64,000 bases of DNA from Longimicrobiales bacterium (GTDB taxonomy: Bacteria > Gemmatimonadota > Gemmatimonadetes > Longimicrobiales > Gaopeijiaceae): assembly GCA_965248195.1 (NCBI GenBank), contig CBDFIQ010000002.1:1376001-1440000 (forward strand), in the 5' to 3' direction. A program made the position numbers and the translations under genes. This document shows, piece after piece, positions 2,996 through 46,301 of the stretch (its first letter is position 1; each line of letters opens with the position of its first letter). Under the pieces are notes generated by a model. The model saw nothing but the letters and a program-made list of their open reading frames with translations, searched no databases and was not told where the DNA came from.

Positions 2996-2998
2996 TAA

Positions 2999-3301
2999 GG
3001 AGGGTGATCGGCAAGGGGGGTGGGTCGCGCACATGGCGCTTGTGCGCGTTCAGACAAGGAATGACGACGAGGCGTAGCAGAGCTACTCCGAGGAGGAGAG
3101 ACGCAGGATCAACCGCACAACCGCCCTGTGCCCACCACCATGTGGGGCATGATCTTACACGTTGATGGGTTGCGGTGGCACGACCCCATCTCCGTTGTTG
3201 GAGCTCCTAGCCGTAGCGAATGCTATGGCGTCGTCGCTCCGCCTAGGAGCTGGGGCCGTGGCATCCGCAACGCGGCCCACCCCCCTTGCCGATCACCCTC
3301 C
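2999..3301. repeat. Dispersed palindromic (MITE/REPIN-like) element, copy 1
   Basis: 31-bp terminal inverted repeats (2999-3029 / 3271-3301, one T.G pair) flanked by a TAA direct repeat. Internal sequence is homologous to 39133-39538. Confidence 0.85.
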
Positions 3302-3309
3302 TAACCCGG

Positions 3310-25051: not shown

Positions 25052-25752
25052 CGGCCTCTCCATCGGAAAACGAAGCGCGCCTGCGGGCCGTAAACCAACG
25101 CGTCGTGGCATGCATCAGGTGTCCGCGTCTGGTGGAGTGGCGCTCGAGGGTGGCTCGGGAAAAGCGGGCCGCGTACGCCTCGGAAGCCTATTGGGGACGT
25201 CCCGTCCCGTCATTCGGGGACCCCGACGCGGAGCTTCTGATCGTGGGTCTCGCTCCGGGCGCGCACGGAGCCAATCGGACGGGCCGCATGTTCACCGGGG
25301 ATCGCTCCGGGGACTGGTTGTATCGAGCTCTGCACCGGGCAGGATTTGCCAACCAGCCCGACGGGCGCACAGCCGACGACGGGTTATGTCTGACGCGAGC
25401 CTACATCACGGCCGCCGTCCGATGTGCACCGCCTGCGAACCGCCCGACCGCCGCCGAGCGGGACCACTGCAGGCCGTACCTCGAAGAGGAGCTGGAGATC
25501 TTTCGGTCCGTGCGCGTGGTCGTGGCGCTCGGGAGGTTCGCATTCGATCAGGTGCTGCGAATCCTCCAGAGCAGCGATGAGGGCGTCCCCCAGGCCCGGC
25601 CCAAGTTCTCGCACGGCGTCGAGGTGGGCCTCGGAAGCAGAACGGTGCTCGGCTGCTACCATCCGAGCCAGCAGAATACGTTCACCGGCCGGCTCACCGA
25701 GTCGATGTTCGATTCCGTGTGGGAGAGGGCAAAGCACCTTATCACATCCTAG
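25048..25752 (+). CDS. Uracil-DNA glycosylase, family 5 (UdgB-like)
   Basis: CIRCPRL Fe-S ligands, VGLAPGAHGANRTGRMFTGDRSG, YHPSQQNTFTG. Confidence 0.9.
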   Translation: MTASPSENEARLRAVNQRVVACIRCPRLVEWRSRVAREKRAAYASEAYWGRPVPSFGDPDAELLIVGLAPGAHGANRTGRMFTGDRSGDWLYRALHRAGFANQPDGRTADDGLCLTRAYITAAVRCAPPANRPTAAERDHCRPYLEEELEIFRSVRVVVALGRFAFDQVLRILQSSDEGVPQARPKFSHGVEVGLGSRTVLGCYHPSQQNTFTGRLTESMFDSVWERAKHLITS

Positions 25753-26803
25753 AAAGGTGATCGGAAAGGGGGGCGGGTAGGATCGTGACGGGTAGGCGCC
25801 GAAAGTGCCGCTCTCGAACATCATCGGGAGTCAACAGCTCGTCGATGATGCGGGCTAATTCCTCTTCGCGTTTCCACATGAACTCGATGGCCTGAAGCTC
25901 CAACTCCATCATGCGGCGTTCGACGCTGTCGTTCACGGCGATCTCGAGGGCGATGGAATGGGTTTTACCCATGCCCCACAGCGACTTGCGTTCTTTTGTC
26001 ACCAGGGCCTCGAAAGCCTCGGAGGACCCGGCGGATTCGATCACGCGGGAGGCGTCCCGGATCGTACCCTCGGTCGCGCCTGTGATGTGTTGGTAGGCCA
26101 GGATCCGTCGAAGAACGTTTTGCGCCTCCGGGCCTCCGATCTCGTAGACCTTCTTCGGTGTCCATGGGTCACAACGAGGACAGGGCACCTCGACCACCGT
26201 GCGGCCGGTCTCCGGCTCGATTCGAGGGAAAACCCACCATGAGAGGTCATACCGCAGGGCCTTGAGCGAGCTGTTGCAGTACGGACAATCGACGGAGCCA
26301 TGCCACGCGGCCCATCCGAACCTACGCCATCGAAGAATGTCCGCCGTCGGTGCGTCATCCCAAACGATGCTGAGATCGTCATCGCCGAGCCCGAAGGCGT
26401 CGGACAAGTAAGCCACGGCGCCGAACGTATAAGCGGTCAGACGAGATCGTGCGCTGTGAAACCGCGATCGCCGCCGGTCCAGCTCGCGGCCATAGCGCCA
26501 CCACGCTCTCTCCGCGAGTCGAGCCCTACCCACCCGGATCAGGAAGAGCTCCCCCGCGGATAGGAGCGCGATGTTGTCTGTTTCGGCCACGAGCCGGGAT
26601 CGGTCACGCACCATCCGTTCCAACTCATGGAGCGCCTCCCAGCGCTCTTCCATGGCGCAGAGATTCCAGCGGCCGCACCGCTCACAGACTGCCCACAACC
26701 GTCCCTCTTCGGGATCGAAGGCCAGGCGGCGGCCTGGAGGAAGGCGCCCGAAGACGCCGTTCTCCCGAAATCTCGTGTGGCAGAAGATGCACCGAGTGAA
26801 CAA
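25742..26803 (-). CDS. Conserved hypothetical protein with two zinc-ribbon (4 x CxxC) modules
   Basis: GGAGG RBS then TTG at 26803; CIFC, CERC, CPYC, CPRC. The upstream part of the 765-aa track ORF is an antisense shadow. Confidence 0.75.
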   Translation of the reverse strand: MFTRCIFCHTRFRENGVFGRLPPGRRLAFDPEEGRLWAVCERCGRWNLCAMEERWEALHELERMVRDRSRLVAETDNIALLSAGELFLIRVGRARLAERAWWRYGRELDRRRSRFHSARSRLTAYTFGAVAYLSDAFGLGDDDLSIVWDDAPTADILRWRRFGWAAWHGSVDCPYCNSSLKALRYDLSWWVFPRIEPETGRTVVEVPCPRCDPWTPKKVYEIGGPEAQNVLRRILAYQHITGATEGTIRDASRVIESAGSSEAFEALVTKERKSLWGMGKTHSIALEIAVNDSVERRMMELELQAIEFMWKREEELARIIDELLTPDDVRERHFRRLPVTILPAPLSDHLSRM

Positions 26804-35135: not shown

Positions 35136-37685
35136 TCAGGAGTTTTCGTCCGAGTCGGTCGGGTCGGGGGCGATCGAAGTGATCGAAACCGGTGGTTCCT
35201 CGTCCTCGGCGAGCGAGCCCAGGAGGAGCGAAGCGATCGAAGCCGGTGGCTCCTCGATTTCAGGGAGCGGGTCCGGGGTGATGGAAGCCGATGGCTCCTG
35301 GATCTCCGGGAGCGGGTCTGGAGCGATGGAAGCCGGTGGCTCCTCGATTTCCGGGAGCGGGTCCAGGGCGATGGCAGCCGGTGGCTCCTCGATTTCCGGG
35401 AGCGTGTCCGGAGCGATGGAAGCGGATGGCTCCTCGATTTCCAGGAGCGGGTCCGGAGCGATGGAAGCGGATGGCTCCTCGATCTCCGGGAGCGGGTCCA
35501 GGGCGATCGAAGCCGATGGCTCCTCGATCTCCGGGAGCGGGTACGGGGCGATCGAAGCGGATGGCTCCTCGATTCCCGGGAGCGGGTCCGGGGCGATGGA
35601 AGCGATCCAATCCGCGGTGTGCTCCGCCGCCTCGAAGGGGTCCCTGGCGATCGGCTTCTTCTTGACTAGGGCAGATGACACCGACGATCCCCGCCATCCG
35701 CCCAGCACATTGATCAGCTCCTCGGTGTTTCTCGTGCGGAAGAAATAGGCTCTTCCCTTGGTTGGCCGTATGTAGATTCCCGGACCGACCAGGCCAAACG
35801 CGAGCGGCACGCACTGGAACACGTCCTTCCTGAACCAAACCTGCCGAACTCGGCGCGTGGTAAGCTCTAACAAGTCGTCGGGCTTTATGATGCGAGACCG
35901 ATAGGCTAGGAACTTGATGCGGAGGTGGTCCGGAAACACGATAATCTTACGAGGAAACAGTGAGAGATAGAGGATGAAGAGCACGACGGCAGCGATGAGC
36001 ATGGCTCCATAAAACACGAGTTGGGCACCGTAATGGTCGATGGTCACGACGTAGGCGAGCGCCAAGGACTGGGCGGCGAACACGATCAGCCGACCAACGA
36101 TCAATCCGACACCGCCGAAGCCGACCACCGCGGCGATCAGAAGCGGAACGGGCATACGGAACCGCGCCACATAAAGGATTCCAGGCATCGTCAACGGCCG
36201 CGTGAGTGCCCAGGCGACCGCCCGAAGCGTGAGGAACACAAGCAGGAGGGCTGCCGCGGCGAAAATCAATTGGCTCATTGGCTGCACCCGAACGAGTGTG
36301 GTGACTTCTCGTTCGGGTACGAAAGTGCGGGCGGCGAACGTCGCCACCTCATCCTGGGTCACACCCGCGAAAAAGGAGAGCAGATCCGGGAAGTCCGTGT
36401 GCTTGGAGGGGTCGTAGAAGTTGCGGAGTACCCAGAAATTCAGGGCTTGCGCCGTCGAGTTTTCCCCCCGGAGCCGTTCGACGAGAGCCGTTCGGTCCGC
36501 CTCGAATTCCTCGGGTGGCAGCGTCCCCTGCCCGAGTGCTGCGATTTCCTCCCGGATGATCGCGTGGGCGAAGTCGTATTCGTTCTCCGCGATGGAGCCC
36601 TGAATCTGCAGGAACCCCCCGGGGCCCCTCTGCGTCGTGCTGACCTGCAATCCGTATACTGCTTTCTGTTCTCCGTATCGAAGGCGTTGATTCAAACGGC
36701 GCGTCAACAGATCCCGAATGAACAGGACCATCAAATCATCCTCGGCATCGCTGTCGAAGAGCTTGTGCCGCGCCGTGTACCGCACGTTGGGGCCAAAGCC
36801 CCAGTAGGAGGCGGCCCGCCCTCGGTCGGGGTCTTCCACGGCCATGGCCCTGGCGGGCACGGGTCTCTTGTCCAGGGACCCCAACGTGCGCTCTGCGATC
36901 TCCAGGATCTCGCTTCGGTCCAGGTCTCCGATTACCGTGAGCGTCATTGCCTCCGGCACGTAGTAGCGGTCGTAAAAATCGGCGACGTCCTCCGGGGTGA
37001 TGCGTTGGAGGCTGGCCCAGCGGTCGTACTGGCGGGCATCTCGGGTTCTCATGCGGAACTCGCGTCGCCAAAAATCACGGGGTAGAAGCCAGGAAGGGTT
37101 GAGCAGCGCCCAGACGCTCTCGAGGAACTGACGCGGCTGTGCGTTGATCTCCACTGCCACCGGAAGGCGGTTCCTCTCCACTACGTCGGCGTCCATCACA
37201 TGCGGGGACACGACCCGAGACAGCCATTCCAGGGCGAACTCCCCGTGCTCCTTCGAGATGGTCACGTAATACCACGTATGGTCCGGGGTCGTGAATCCGT
37301 TGTGTCGGCCGCCGAGGCCGTCGATCGCGTCCTTGATTTCCTGCTCGGTCCGTCCATCGTGATCGGAAAACAGGACGTGCTCCGTCAGGTGCGCGAGCTC
37401 CTCCTTGCCGCGAGGATCCGAATCCCATCCGTACGGCACACCGACGCTGATAGCGACGTTAGGGGCCTCCGGGAGTCGCTTGAACCAAACTCTCAGTCCG
37501 TTCGACAGGTAGTAGGTTTCGAATCCGGAGAAGGGGTTCGCCTTCATCTCGCTCGCTGAAGGGGCCGCCGAAGGCAGGGTCTGTGACCAGACGCCCCGCG
37601 GCACAACCGACCCGATTAGGACCAGCCCGAAGAGGGCCGGAAACTGGAGAATGCCGGGCCTGATCCCTGGAACGATATGTGACAT
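35136..37685 (-). CDS. M16-family zinc peptidase with C-terminal TM anchor and acidic repeat tail
   Basis: Signal peptide, LSNGL, HLTEH (HxxEH), NGFT...T.YY, ~3 TM helices, 15-aa repeats. ATG 37685 has a GGAGAG RBS. Confidence 0.85.
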   Translation of the reverse strand: MSHIVPGIRPGILQFPALFGLVLIGSVVPRGVWSQTLPSAAPSASEMKANPFSGFETYYLSNGLRVWFKRLPEAPNVAISVGVPYGWDSDPRGKEELAHLTEHVLFSDHDGRTEQEIKDAIDGLGGRHNGFTTPDHTWYYVTISKEHGEFALEWLSRVVSPHVMDADVVERNRLPVAVEINAQPRQFLESVWALLNPSWLLPRDFWRREFRMRTRDARQYDRWASLQRITPEDVADFYDRYYVPEAMTLTVIGDLDRSEILEIAERTLGSLDKRPVPARAMAVEDPDRGRAASYWGFGPNVRYTARHKLFDSDAEDDLMVLFIRDLLTRRLNQRLRYGEQKAVYGLQVSTTQRGPGGFLQIQGSIAENEYDFAHAIIREEIAALGQGTLPPEEFEADRTALVERLRGENSTAQALNFWVLRNFYDPSKHTDFPDLLSFFAGVTQDEVATFAARTFVPEREVTTLVRVQPMSQLIFAAAALLLVFLTLRAVAWALTRPLTMPGILYVARFRMPVPLLIAAVVGFGGVGLIVGRLIVFAAQSLALAYVVTIDHYGAQLVFYGAMLIAAVVLFILYLSLFPRKIIVFPDHLRIKFLAYRSRIIKPDDLLELTTRRVRQVWFRKDVFQCVPLAFGLVGPGIYIRPTKGRAYFFRTRNTEELINVLGGWRGSSVSSALVKKKPIARDPFEAAEHTADWIASIAPDPLPGIEEPSASIAPYPLPEIEEPSASIALDPLPEIEEPSASIAPDPLLEIEEPSASIAPDTLPEIEEPPAAIALDPLPEIEEPPASIAPDPLPEIQEPSASITPDPLPEIEEPPASIASLLLGSLAEDEEPPVSITSIAPDPTDSDENS
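35232..35603. repeat. 45-bp coding tandem repeat x8 (ASIAPDPLPEIEEPS/P)
   Basis: Eight near-identical units plus a partial ninth at the 3' end of the M16 peptidase. Confidence 0.92.
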
Positions 37686-38405: not shown

Positions 38406-39133
38406 GGGAGCGACATATTCGGGTCGCCCGAACGGCGCGTTACTACACCCTCGGGCCGGCCGGCACGAGTCTCCGAGAAGTATGGCTCGTATGTCATGGA
38501 TACCGGCAGCTGGCGCGGCGTTTTCTAACTCGATTCGCCGACCTGGACGATGGAACGCGACTGATCGTGGCGCCCGAGGGCCTCTCCCGCTTTTACCTCC
38601 ACGACCCTGCGTCCGGCCACGGTAAGGAAGTCCCGATCGGCGCCACGTGGATGACGAGAGAAGACCGCGAGAACGAGATCACGGACTATGTGGGGTTTCT
38701 CGATGGAGTTCTGGACGAGGTTCTGGACGAGGTCCTGGACGAGGTTCTAGACGAGGTTCTAGACGAGGTTCCGGACGAGGTATCCGCGGAGTCGGGTGGA
38801 GCGATCGCGCGCCTCACGGTGTTGGGGTTTTCACAGGGTGCCCACACCGTGTGTCGGTGGGTGGCGGCGGGAGAGGCCGCCATCGAACGGATCATCCTTT
38901 GGGGAGCGTATCTTCCCGACGACTTGGATCTGGACCGCGGGCCCGAGCGGTTGGGATCGGCCGAACTCATCCTGGTACGGGGGCTTCTCGATTCCTTCAT
39001 CTCTGACGAGGCCCACGCCTCTCAAGAGAAAAGACTGGAAGATCTAGGAATCCCTTTCGAGACGATTACACATCCCGGAGGCCACGAAATCGATACGGTC
39101 CTGCTTCGGCAGATCGCGGGCGTGACGGATTAG
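38402..39133 (+). CDS. Phospholipase/carboxylesterase (alpha/beta hydrolase)
   Basis: HGY.Q, APEGLSRFY, GFSQG nucleophile elbow, GGH; GTGA coupling. Confidence 0.85.
   Translation: MRERHIRVARTARYYTLGPAGTSLREVWLVCHGYRQLARRFLTRFADLDDGTRLIVAPEGLSRFYLHDPASGHGKEVPIGATWMTREDRENEITDYVGFLDGVLDEVLDEVLDEVLDEVLDEVPDEVSAESGGAIARLTVLGFSQGAHTVCRWVAAGEAAIERIILWGAYLPDDLDLDRGPERLGSAELILVRGLLDSFISDEAHASQEKRLEDLGIPFETITHPGGHEIDTVLLRQIAGVTD
38711..38782. repeat. 12-bp coding tandem repeat x6 (LDEV)
   Basis: CTGGACGAGGTT-type units, in frame. Confidence 0.92.
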
Positions 39134-39538
39134 AAGGCTGTTGAAGGAGTACAGCGGGTCGCGCACAGGGCGCTTGTGCGCGTTCGGACAACGTCGCGGA
39201 CGTGATGTTCGGCGATGGACATTGGTTTCCGCGGCACCTGAGCCGAAGGCGAAGAACGAACGACGACGAGGCGTAGCAACGCTACGGTGAGGAGGAGAGA
39301 CGCAGGATCAACCGCACAACCGCCCTGTGCCTCCACCATTTAGGGCATGACCTTGCATGTTTGTGGGTTGTGGTGGCACGGCCCCGACCACGCTGCGCGT
39401 GGTGCCCCCGTTGTTGGAGTTCCTCGCCATTGCTACGGCTATGGCGTCGTCGCTCCGCCTAGGAGCTAGGACCGTGGCATCCCGGGTACCCGTGCCGTGG
39501 CACGGGTGGCGGCCCACTGTACTCCTTCAACAGCCTTC
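39133..39538. repeat. Dispersed palindromic (MITE/REPIN-like) element, copy 2
   Basis: 30-bp terminal inverted repeats (39133-39162 / 39509-39538, 28/30). Internal blocks match 2999-3301, with additional hairpin insertions. Confidence 0.85.
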
Positions 39539-43707: not shown

Positions 43708-44469
43708 ATGATGGAAGACACGCTAGAGCAAGATACCGGTTCCACACTGATCGACCTTCAGGGCCTCAGCAAGGTGTTTTACACCGAGGAGGTGGAAACC
43801 CACGCATTGTCCGACATCCACTTGGACGTCAAGGCCGGTGAGTTCGTGTCGATCGCCGGACCGTCGGGTTGCGGCAAGACCACGCTGCTGTCGATCCTCG
43901 GGCTGCTGGACTCTCCAACGATGGGGGACTATCTGCTCGACGGCGAGCCTGTGGCTGAGCTCACGGCCTCACAGCGAGCCAAGATCCGCAACCAGGCGAT
44001 CGGATTCATCTTTCAGGCTTTTAACCTGATCGGAGATCTCACGGTCTACGAAAATGTGGAGCTTCCGCTCACGTACCGCGGGATGGCCGGAGGGGAGCGT
44101 AAGGAGCGCGTGCACATGGCTCTCGAAAGGGTCGGCATGGCGCACCGCATGAACCACTATCCGAGTCAACTCTCCGGTGGTCAGCAACAGCGTGTGGCGG
44201 TGGCGAGGGCCATCGTCGGCAAGCCACTCATCCTGCTGGCGGACGAGCCTACCGGAAACCTCGACTCGAAGAACGGGAATGCGGTCATGGACCTCATGAA
44301 GGAATTGCACGACGAGGGGGCGACGATCTGCATGGTGACGCACGATCCGCGTTACGCGACGGTAGCCGATCGGTCGGTGCACCTCTTCGATGGCCAGGTC
44401 GTCGACGAGGAAGACGCCCACCGGGCGGAACATGCTCAGGAGTTGGAGGAAAGCGGCTTCGAGGTCTAG
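43708..44469 (+). CDS. ABC transporter ATP-binding protein (MacB/LolD type)
   Basis: GPSGCGKT, GFIFQAFNLI, LSGGQQQRVA, LADEPTGNLD, VTHD. Confidence 0.95.
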   Translation: MMEDTLEQDTGSTLIDLQGLSKVFYTEEVETHALSDIHLDVKAGEFVSIAGPSGCGKTTLLSILGLLDSPTMGDYLLDGEPVAELTASQRAKIRNQAIGFIFQAFNLIGDLTVYENVELPLTYRGMAGGERKERVHMALERVGMAHRMNHYPSQLSGGQQQRVAVARAIVGKPLILLADEPTGNLDSKNGNAVMDLMKELHDEGATICMVTHDPRYATVADRSVHLFDGQVVDEEDAHRAEHAQELEESGFEV

Positions 44470-45438: not shown

Positions 45439-45443
45439 ACTAG

Positions 45444-46254
45444 GGCCTGTTAACACTATCTGAGGGCTTCGACGATGAGCGCGAAGTGGATGAAGGCGGT
45501 AAACATCACGTCGAGCTTGTCAAAGCGGGAGAAGATTCTTCTGAAGCCTTTGAGTCGCCGAAATAACCGCTCTATTTCGTTACGACGGCGATACATGACT
45601 CGGTCATACTGCCACGGGTTAACACGGCCCTGCTTGGGTGGCACGACCGGCGTAAACCCCAGCTCCAACACCAATTGCCGTGTTTCGCCCCCCTCGTACG
45701 CCCGGTCCATGATCATGGACACTGTGGAATGTACCGGCTTCAACGTGCGTAGCAGTTCCCGTCCTTCCGGCGCGTCGTGCTTGTGGCCTGGCGATAGCGA
45801 GAAGGTTATCGCGGTTCGAGCATCTGCGGCAACCATATGAATCTTGGTGGTCCAGCCTCCACGCGACTTGCCGATGGCCTGCGGGCCGTTTTTTTTAGAG
45901 CGCCGGTGCCATCAGGGTGCACCTTGACGATGGTACTGTCGATCGACAGAGCTTGGATCTTGATCCGGATAATTTGCTCGTCTTGCAGGGCCGCAAAGAC
46001 ACGATCCAGCACACCTGCCCTGGCCCAGCGATTCATTCGGGTGTAGATCGTATGCCAGTTACCGAAACGCGGAGGCAACCCCCGCCATTTGCAGCCGTGT
46101 TCGGCCACATACAGGATCGCGTTAAGCACTTCGAGATTGGAGATGCTCACATTGCCGCGCTGATGCGGAAAGCAAGCCTCTATCCGACGATATTGGGACT
46201 CTGTGATTTTCATAGCCCCAATATACTACAAATTGCCCTTAGTGTTAACAGACC
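45444..46254 (-). mobile_element. IS5-family insertion sequence (IS427-like), apparently intact
   Basis: 15-bp IRs GG(C/T)CTGTTAACACTA, flanking CTAG direct repeat (45440-45443 / 46255-46258), two overlapping transposase ORFs. Confidence 0.93.
45456..46213 (-). CDS. IS5-family transposase, OrfA/OrfB joined by a -1 frameshift
   Basis: OrfA has GCKWR.LP..FG.W.TIY.R..RW and IDST. OrfB has DRAY and YRRRNEIER.F.RLK. An A8 slippery run lies at 45889-45896. Confidence 0.9.
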
Positions 46255-46301
46255 CTAGCTGTCCCGAGGACGAGCGGCTTGCGCATGAGAGGCGGTAGGA
46301 G

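Follow-up and report, generated by a model that had tools for sequence, protein, structure and literature searches.

MITEs are generally regarded as dead ends, each derived from a single insertion sequence (IS) by deletion. The families described in bacteria (Nezha, Correia/NEMIS, RUP, ERIC and YPAL) are presented in PMC3184786 and PMC3733652 as non-coding elements with IS-like terminal inverted repeats (TIRs) of 15-30 bp, empty as well as filled sites, a stable fold and a gene-adjacent location. The IS matching Nezha occurs only in other species (PMC3184786). The bcr1 element of the Bacillus cereus group, known to us by its description in PMC3184786, folds much like a cruciform, a terminal stem carrying two stem-loops; it has compensatory changes, and its genomic positions are not conserved. 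REPINs, the REP doublets that go with RAYT, are two inverted hairpin units acting as a mobile doublet (PMC3733652, PMC3116915). Homogenisation of inverted-repeat arms by template switching, described for bacteria in PMC5941160, is reported for yeast as well (PMC5941160, PMC8604942): the sequence of one arm serves as template for its partner, with mirrored multi-base changes and spacer inversion as the outcome.

The family of 303-bp elements analyzed here has the listed MITE features and, like Nezha, has its matching ISs in other species. Among described systems, Nezha, bcr1 and the general MITE class of PMC3733652 are nearest to it. It differs from the described bacterial MITEs in that one core is found with six or more end types matching different IS clades, the ends vary copy by copy in mirror image, and the core consists of two inverted units of a kind that is also found singly. 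The fold, the compensatory changes and the shifting positions are shared with bcr1, which differs in being ~155 bp long, in having 5-bp direct repeats and in having been shown to be transcribed; the bcr1 description in PMC3184786, the basis of this comparison, does not mention end swapping. In contrast to those of REPINs, the hairpin units are ~100 nt and enclosed in IS-type TIRs that match DDE elements. The template-switching cases in PMC5941160 and PMC8604942 involve short spacers (the limit used in PMC5941160 is 70 nt), whereas the arms of the present element are ~240 nt apart, a much longer spacer, and would need a folded core to meet. No description of the family, or of end swapping on a conserved core, was found in literature searches that covered mainly papers outside subscription journals; the stem-loop family survey PMC2267715, or supplements, could list unnamed families. 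Particular to this family are the inverted doublet, partner ISs for five end types, copy-level mirroring counts and an orientation bias.

Two copies lie in the window, the whole 64,000-nt stretch of Longimicrobiales DNA that was analyzed (Table 1). The initial annotation had placed both copies correctly, and its count of 13 differences among the 31 left-end positions, 12 of them mirrored at the right end, proved exact, as did the TAA flanks of copy 1. Copy 2 is flanked by TA on the left and AA on the right, and its first G completes the TAG stop codon of the upstream ORF, for which the earlier label of esterase has no Pfam support. Both copies fold far better than shuffled sequence, with z = -11.6 for copy 1 and -7.8 for copy 2 and 0/100 shuffles as good in each case. 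Neither copy contains an ORF of at least 100 aa. No sigma-70 promoter or terminator was found in copy 1, and a promoter in the central loop, considered as a candidate, gained no support.

Table 1. Positions of the two element copies, their predicted parts and a solo end in the window
Feature	Position	Strand	Remarks
Copy 1, basic 303-bp element, type B ends	2999..3301	+	between gap and pgk, co-directional with both
Copy 1 left terminal arm, 22 nt, type B	2999..3020	+	outer 17 nt match the ends of IS1182 element L161 at 14/17
Copy 1 right terminal arm	3280..3301	-	all 22 nt mirror the left arm exactly, the rarer C at position 14 among them
TAA flank of copy 1	2996..2998	+	recurs at 3302-3304; probable target duplication (the family targets TA in CTAG)
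Copy 1 predicted left hairpin arm	3029..3131	+	covarying helix, three tandem GA/GA motifs, apical GTAGC-N4-GCTAC
Copy 1 central unpaired variable stretch	3132..3168	.	near-fixed length; only a few bases left in 274-bp forms
Copy 1 predicted right hairpin arm	3169..3271	-	homologous to the left arm in inverted orientation; its purine-rich loops are on the bottom strand
Copy 2, 406-bp element, type A ends	39133..39538	+	between an ORF without a Pfam hit and murB
Copy 2 left terminal arm, type A	39133..39154	+	outer 17 nt agree at 16/17 with IS ends of the L171 transposase clade
Copy 2 right terminal arm	39517-39538		mirror of the left arm 39133..39154
Copy 2 optional 65-nt segment in left arm	39190..39254	+	common to a few other copies
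Copy 2 optional small hairpin	39386..39407	.	fixed spot of the right arm
Copy 2 second optional small hairpin	39484..39508	.	close to the right end
Solo type B end (remnant)	25752..25779	+	begins at the stop codon of a uracil-DNA-glycosylase-family gene

The source genome (G000; 4.86 Mb in 2 contigs) holds 24 full copies together with many solo ends and collapsed hairpins, so the element is not confined to the two window copies. The repeat was detected in 11/11 genomes of the same genus, and a divergent-member query matched 70/351 genomes of the order in 33/113 genera, nearly all of one family. Plasmid sequences gave no match to the element, and viral contigs had neither the core motif nor a relative of L161. 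A scan of the window against Rfam 15 gave 0 matches, with only weak chance hits at E values up to 10, and 0 matches were obtained at E 0.05 in 11 related loci; the family thus matched no known structured RNA in this check. The copy set comprised 92 anchored copies from the genus, of which the 3 without two scorable ends were dropped to leave 89; mirroring, G-U and flank counts were made on 86 after one chimera and two copies with shifted arms were removed. TIRs in the 89 copies span 22-31 nt. The basic length is 302-303 bp across genera and exactly 303 bp in 48/86 genus copies; longer copies carry small optional hairpins added at fixed spots.

Comparison with related genomes identifies the element as mobile. 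The gap-pgk site was empty in 11/11 same-genus genomes and the murB site of copy 2 in 5/5 relatives checked. Among 65 copies from relatives, 38 correspond to an empty site in the source genome whose flanks meet within 6 nt, and for 4 the site is occupied there as well. Pre-existing target hairpins as the origin of the ends were ruled out by the empty sites, which lack them. Net gain per insertion was 2 nt at 9/25 measurable sites and 1 nt at 7/25. TA was the commonest flank in the genus copies (left, 30/86; right, 35/86; both sides, 11/86), and the first G of the element completes an upstream stop codon in 15/89 copies. Immediately right of the element, the first base differs from the empty site in 23/31 cases, where the background is near 15%. 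Other genera have cleaner junctions than the genus, where the junctions are also less clean than those of the ISs themselves. We read this pattern as insertion into the TA of CTAG-like sites followed by decay; imprecise insertion is a possible alternative. Multicopy dispersal, empty sites and the literature search together bear out the proposal of an uncharacterised non-autonomous mobile family.

One core occurs with at least six end types (A, B, C, D, F, G, H), the two sides being mirror images in each type; types C, D, F, G and H came from the divergent members, which have the same core. Partner ISs were sought with an IS1182 family search over 61 genomes of the family, and the ends of 38/53 IS loci were compared. 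Type A matches the ends of the L171 clade at up to 17/17 nt (15 metagenome loci) and type B those of the IS1182 element L161 at 15/17, both partners having been chosen for likeness to the ends. The partners of types D, G and F/H were in hand before those types were seen: type D matches the IS1182 element L165 at 17/17, type G matches L168 at 15/17, and types F and H match L175 at 14/17. Type C is without a close partner (11-14/17). Shuffled ends equalled these five IS match scores in 0-1/1000 trials. L161 and L165 score 329.6 and 311.2 against the IS1182 cut-off of 270, and L168 and L175 fall under it. The L171 transposase (DUF772 + DDE) scores 157.9, over the IS5_4 cut-off of 140, and 254.2, under the IS1182 cut-off. 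The partner ends are in register with the outer 17 nt of the element and have TA flanks in CTAG, with no core inside. IS1182/IS5-family ISs (NCBIfam NF033551, NF033581) differ from the element in that they encode a transposase, have unequal left and right ends and lack a hairpin core. A second small module, positions 18-22 of the element, occurs in free combination with the outer 17 nt. Two end types occur within one genome in G000, G565 and G582, and unlike ends were found in two copies, L105 (which holds an N) and L112.

The partners come from other genera and from metagenomes. Searches of the 12 genus genomes turned up no A- or B-type transposase (for B, coverage was 2 of them), and the source genome gave no DUF772 transposase. 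The exact 30-nt A end was found at 46 loci from 185,579 species genomes, 45/46 in records titled Longimicrobiales or Gemmatimonad- MAGs, and none of these loci is an autonomous element; the core was absent from 32 loci with A-like ends. The active IS5-type element of the source genome, present in 13 copies, was considered as a partner and rejected: although it too is flanked by TA, its ends do not line up in register with types A and B. A copy of that IS5-family element lies in the window at about 45440-46260 (~820 bp; TA-flanked in CTAG; 13 Pfam hits across the genome, in near-identical copies).

The initial annotation had read the 12 compensated positions as a sign that pairing rather than sequence is maintained. 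For the window copies this part did not hold, as those positions separate two fixed end types. The sequence of each type is conserved across genera, as in ordinary transposase-bound TIRs, and the ends of the two copies match two IS clades (16/17 for copy 2 and 14/17 for copy 1), an outcome which the initial annotation had itself named as refuting its reading and which does so for this contrast. The contrast between the copies is thus largely the distance between the conserved types A and B.

A part that did stand is that the ends seem to be re-copied from each other, and it rests on changes within a type. In the outer 22 nt of the 70 type A copies, 64 changes are present at both ends and 31 at one end, where 7.2 of the former are expected by independence; the 16 type B copies have 10 both-end and 11 one-end changes with 2.4 expected. 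The two types together thus have 74 mirrored changes against about 10 expected. These comprise 25 distinct changes, of which 11 were seen once and 9 are transversions, and one copy (L075) has a mirrored deletion. Private mirrored variants are present in three other genomes too. In permutations of the right arm, the observed 26 non-consensus perfect type A copies were reached in 0/5000 trials, also within genomes; the within-genome result for type B was weak (153/5000). Left-right mismatches at stem positions 23 and 27 persist in 78/86 and 73/86 genus copies and are mostly absent in G077, which means that copying must usually stop at about 22 nt. In one copy (L069 in G006) the left and right ends have exchanged the position-27 mismatch, as expected from core inversion between the arms.

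Eight same-locus groups were available. Three pairs with the same left junction, from two species, differ on both ends at once; one further group differs on one end, one nowhere, and three look like separate nearby insertions. In-place end change is likely at the same-site pairs. Their interiors are no closer than those of other copies, so the pairs may be repeat insertions or converted copies.

Plain MITE subfamilies are very unlikely to account for these counts. By that explanation, mirrored variants descend from master copies and gene conversion among copies scrambles the interiors. It accounts for the A/B contrast and for the presence of B ends at 10 places on the interior tree, and fits with interiors that are closer within than between genomes and with a tree so poorly resolved that 8/83 branches are starred; the same tree was tried as a clock of end changes and set aside as too mosaic. 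Each master would still require two matching mutations, however, and 16/20 perfect type A haplotypes occur once. All 24 source-genome copies were examined, which makes unseen masters unlikely there.

The interior was aligned for 23 diverse members. Two long arms stand on the terminal stem with an unpaired center, and 97% of cells are paired. Changes on both sides were found at 27/64 interior pairs, a number reached in 0/500 shuffles and compared with 4-8 in slid controls, in this set of 23 related sequences with relatedness uncorrected. The covarying fold of the initial annotation is thereby borne out for the core. Read on the other strand, the right arm is homologous to the left, making the core an inverted doublet of one hairpin unit. 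Near-invariant tandem GA/GA motifs mark the top strand of the left arm, and purine-rich loops mark the bottom strand of the right arm. G-U exceeds A-C by 31:15 in the left arm and the ratio is 56:87 in the right arm, counts in which the copies are not independent. Folding energy, used as a strand test, picks no strand. Searches with a model of one arm matched 14/150 genomes across the phylum, mostly 161-172 bp single-arm elements with yet other TA-flanked ends and also 275-bp doublets.

Orientation was scored from gene directions given by a simple hexamer caller that was checked on three window genes. Between co-directional genes the doublet is in the sense orientation in 65:5 cases in the genus (88/89 copies scored) and 32:5 outside it (54/55), or 97:10 combined. 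Single-arm elements have no orientation bias (6:8; 19 loci). In the source genome, 18/24 copies follow GC skew, and the 6 copies against the local skew are all sense to a neighboring gene; replication-strand bias was set aside for gene direction on this ground. Taken from gene arrangement, the bias points to an effect at the level of transcription.

Another explanation is host selection on a folded RNA: in operon transcripts the element would fold as a closed unit whose helices, the terminal one included, are kept by stepwise compensation. The sense bias follows genes and not the replication fork, the core covaries, G-U outnumbers A-C among left-arm pairs, and a precedent that is transcribed exists in bcr1 (PMC3184786). 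We nevertheless regard this explanation as doubtful for the element as a whole. One-end changes in the terminal stem give 12 G-U and 20 A-C on the top strand, which is the sense strand for nearly all copies and therefore reveals no wobble preference, and the right-arm ratio is also reversed. The one-off mirrored transversions and the mirrored deletion do not fit stepwise compensation, the two arms have their GA motifs on opposite strands, folding energies are indifferent to strand, and the single-arm relatives are unbiased. Mirrored one-off transversions, the deletion and the missing G-U preference together favor arm-to-arm copying over RNA pairing. The proposal in the initial annotation that a folded RNA keeps the ends paired is thus the weaker of its two readings.

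The family is probably a 303-bp MITE with a conserved core, predicted to form two inverted hairpin arms, and exchangeable 22-bp ends; IS1182/IS5-like transposases likely move it, and the ends are likely matched by arm-to-arm DNA copying. We infer the following steps. Passing IS1182/IS5-like elements would cut the MITE and paste it into the TA of CTAG-like sites, often stop codons. Where the element becomes single-stranded at a replication fork, the folded core may set the ends side by side, and template switching or conversion could then copy a change from one end onto the other. By the same copying, a new end gained on one side would become a matched pair in one step, re-addressing the core to another transposase. 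Copies with unlike ends (L105, L112) are the expected intermediate of such one-sided end capture. The host may tolerate the element in operons mainly in one orientation. DNA copying alone leaves the orientation bias and the core covariation unexplained.

Matched ends could also arise if the folded single strand were itself the mobile form, its own ends pairing, the transposase cutting the duplex and mismatch repair giving new copies that are born with matched ends. Mirroring over exactly the outer 22 nt of the duplex, the fixed length across genera, strand-specific GA motifs at each end, imprecise junction bases and the absence of the core from the partner ISs are what such a form would produce. 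We consider it very unlikely. DDE transposases act on double-stranded ends. The same-site pairs suggest change after insertion, and the collapsed mini-hairpins and solo ends are ordinary decay. A search for a Y1 (HUH)/RAYT transposase, a gene the initial annotation had suggested looking for, gave 0 hits for PF01797 in the source genome (91.8% complete). REPINs and IS200/IS605 derivatives are not known to have IS-type TIRs at their termini, which in the present element are long and match DDE elements.

Arm-to-arm copying in a MITE moved by passing transposases has a bolder version, which is speculative and rather unlikely. The element would be a self-editing, re-addressable transposon whose folded single-strand core joins the ends, copies a new end to its partner and so passes from one IS1182/IS5 transposase to another, unrelated one; at its boldest, this version would make the folded single strand itself the substrate of a DDE transposase, with the GA-rich arms as recognition sites for a host or element factor. 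The lasting entity in this family is the core, and the transposase address is its replaceable part. Arm-to-arm copying, if true, would supply new matched ends in a single step and account for the persistence of a non-coding element beyond the transposases passing through its lineage. With its many copies the family amounts to a natural experiment, repeated over and over, on whether inverted-repeat arms are homogenised when a long folded spacer separates them, and the orientation bias gives a direct clue to the conservation of the structured core.

Several further arrangements were observed. In L199:250-300 an A-clade IS has inserted directly at the terminus of a B-type end, and in L195:985-1100 another IS lies beside a single-arm core; ISs landing next to these elements are a possible route to end capture. 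In G006 a 1209-bp DUF772 IS (L373-L383) whose two ends are unequal and F-like is present in ~30 identical copies, and no F-type MITE was present among the 18 copies examined there. In some relatives (L143, L123, L147, L155, L210) solo ends place AAGGAG or GGAG a few bases before ATG or GTG and could be ribosome-binding sites; the source genome has no clear pattern of this kind. The single-arm unit forms head-to-tail arrays with a ~173-bp period in G087 (L328, L314). At G000:C1:900660-900922 a B-type end continues into sequence that resembles the beginning of the single-arm elements, a decayed hybrid. The window also holds a short internal repeat at 35235-35604 and, at 43761-44428, a 670-bp stretch that has one further genomic match. 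Genome-wide, a ~1390-bp repeat cluster with up to 162 linked intervals is probably a very abundant IS, and several smaller IS-sized families are present too.
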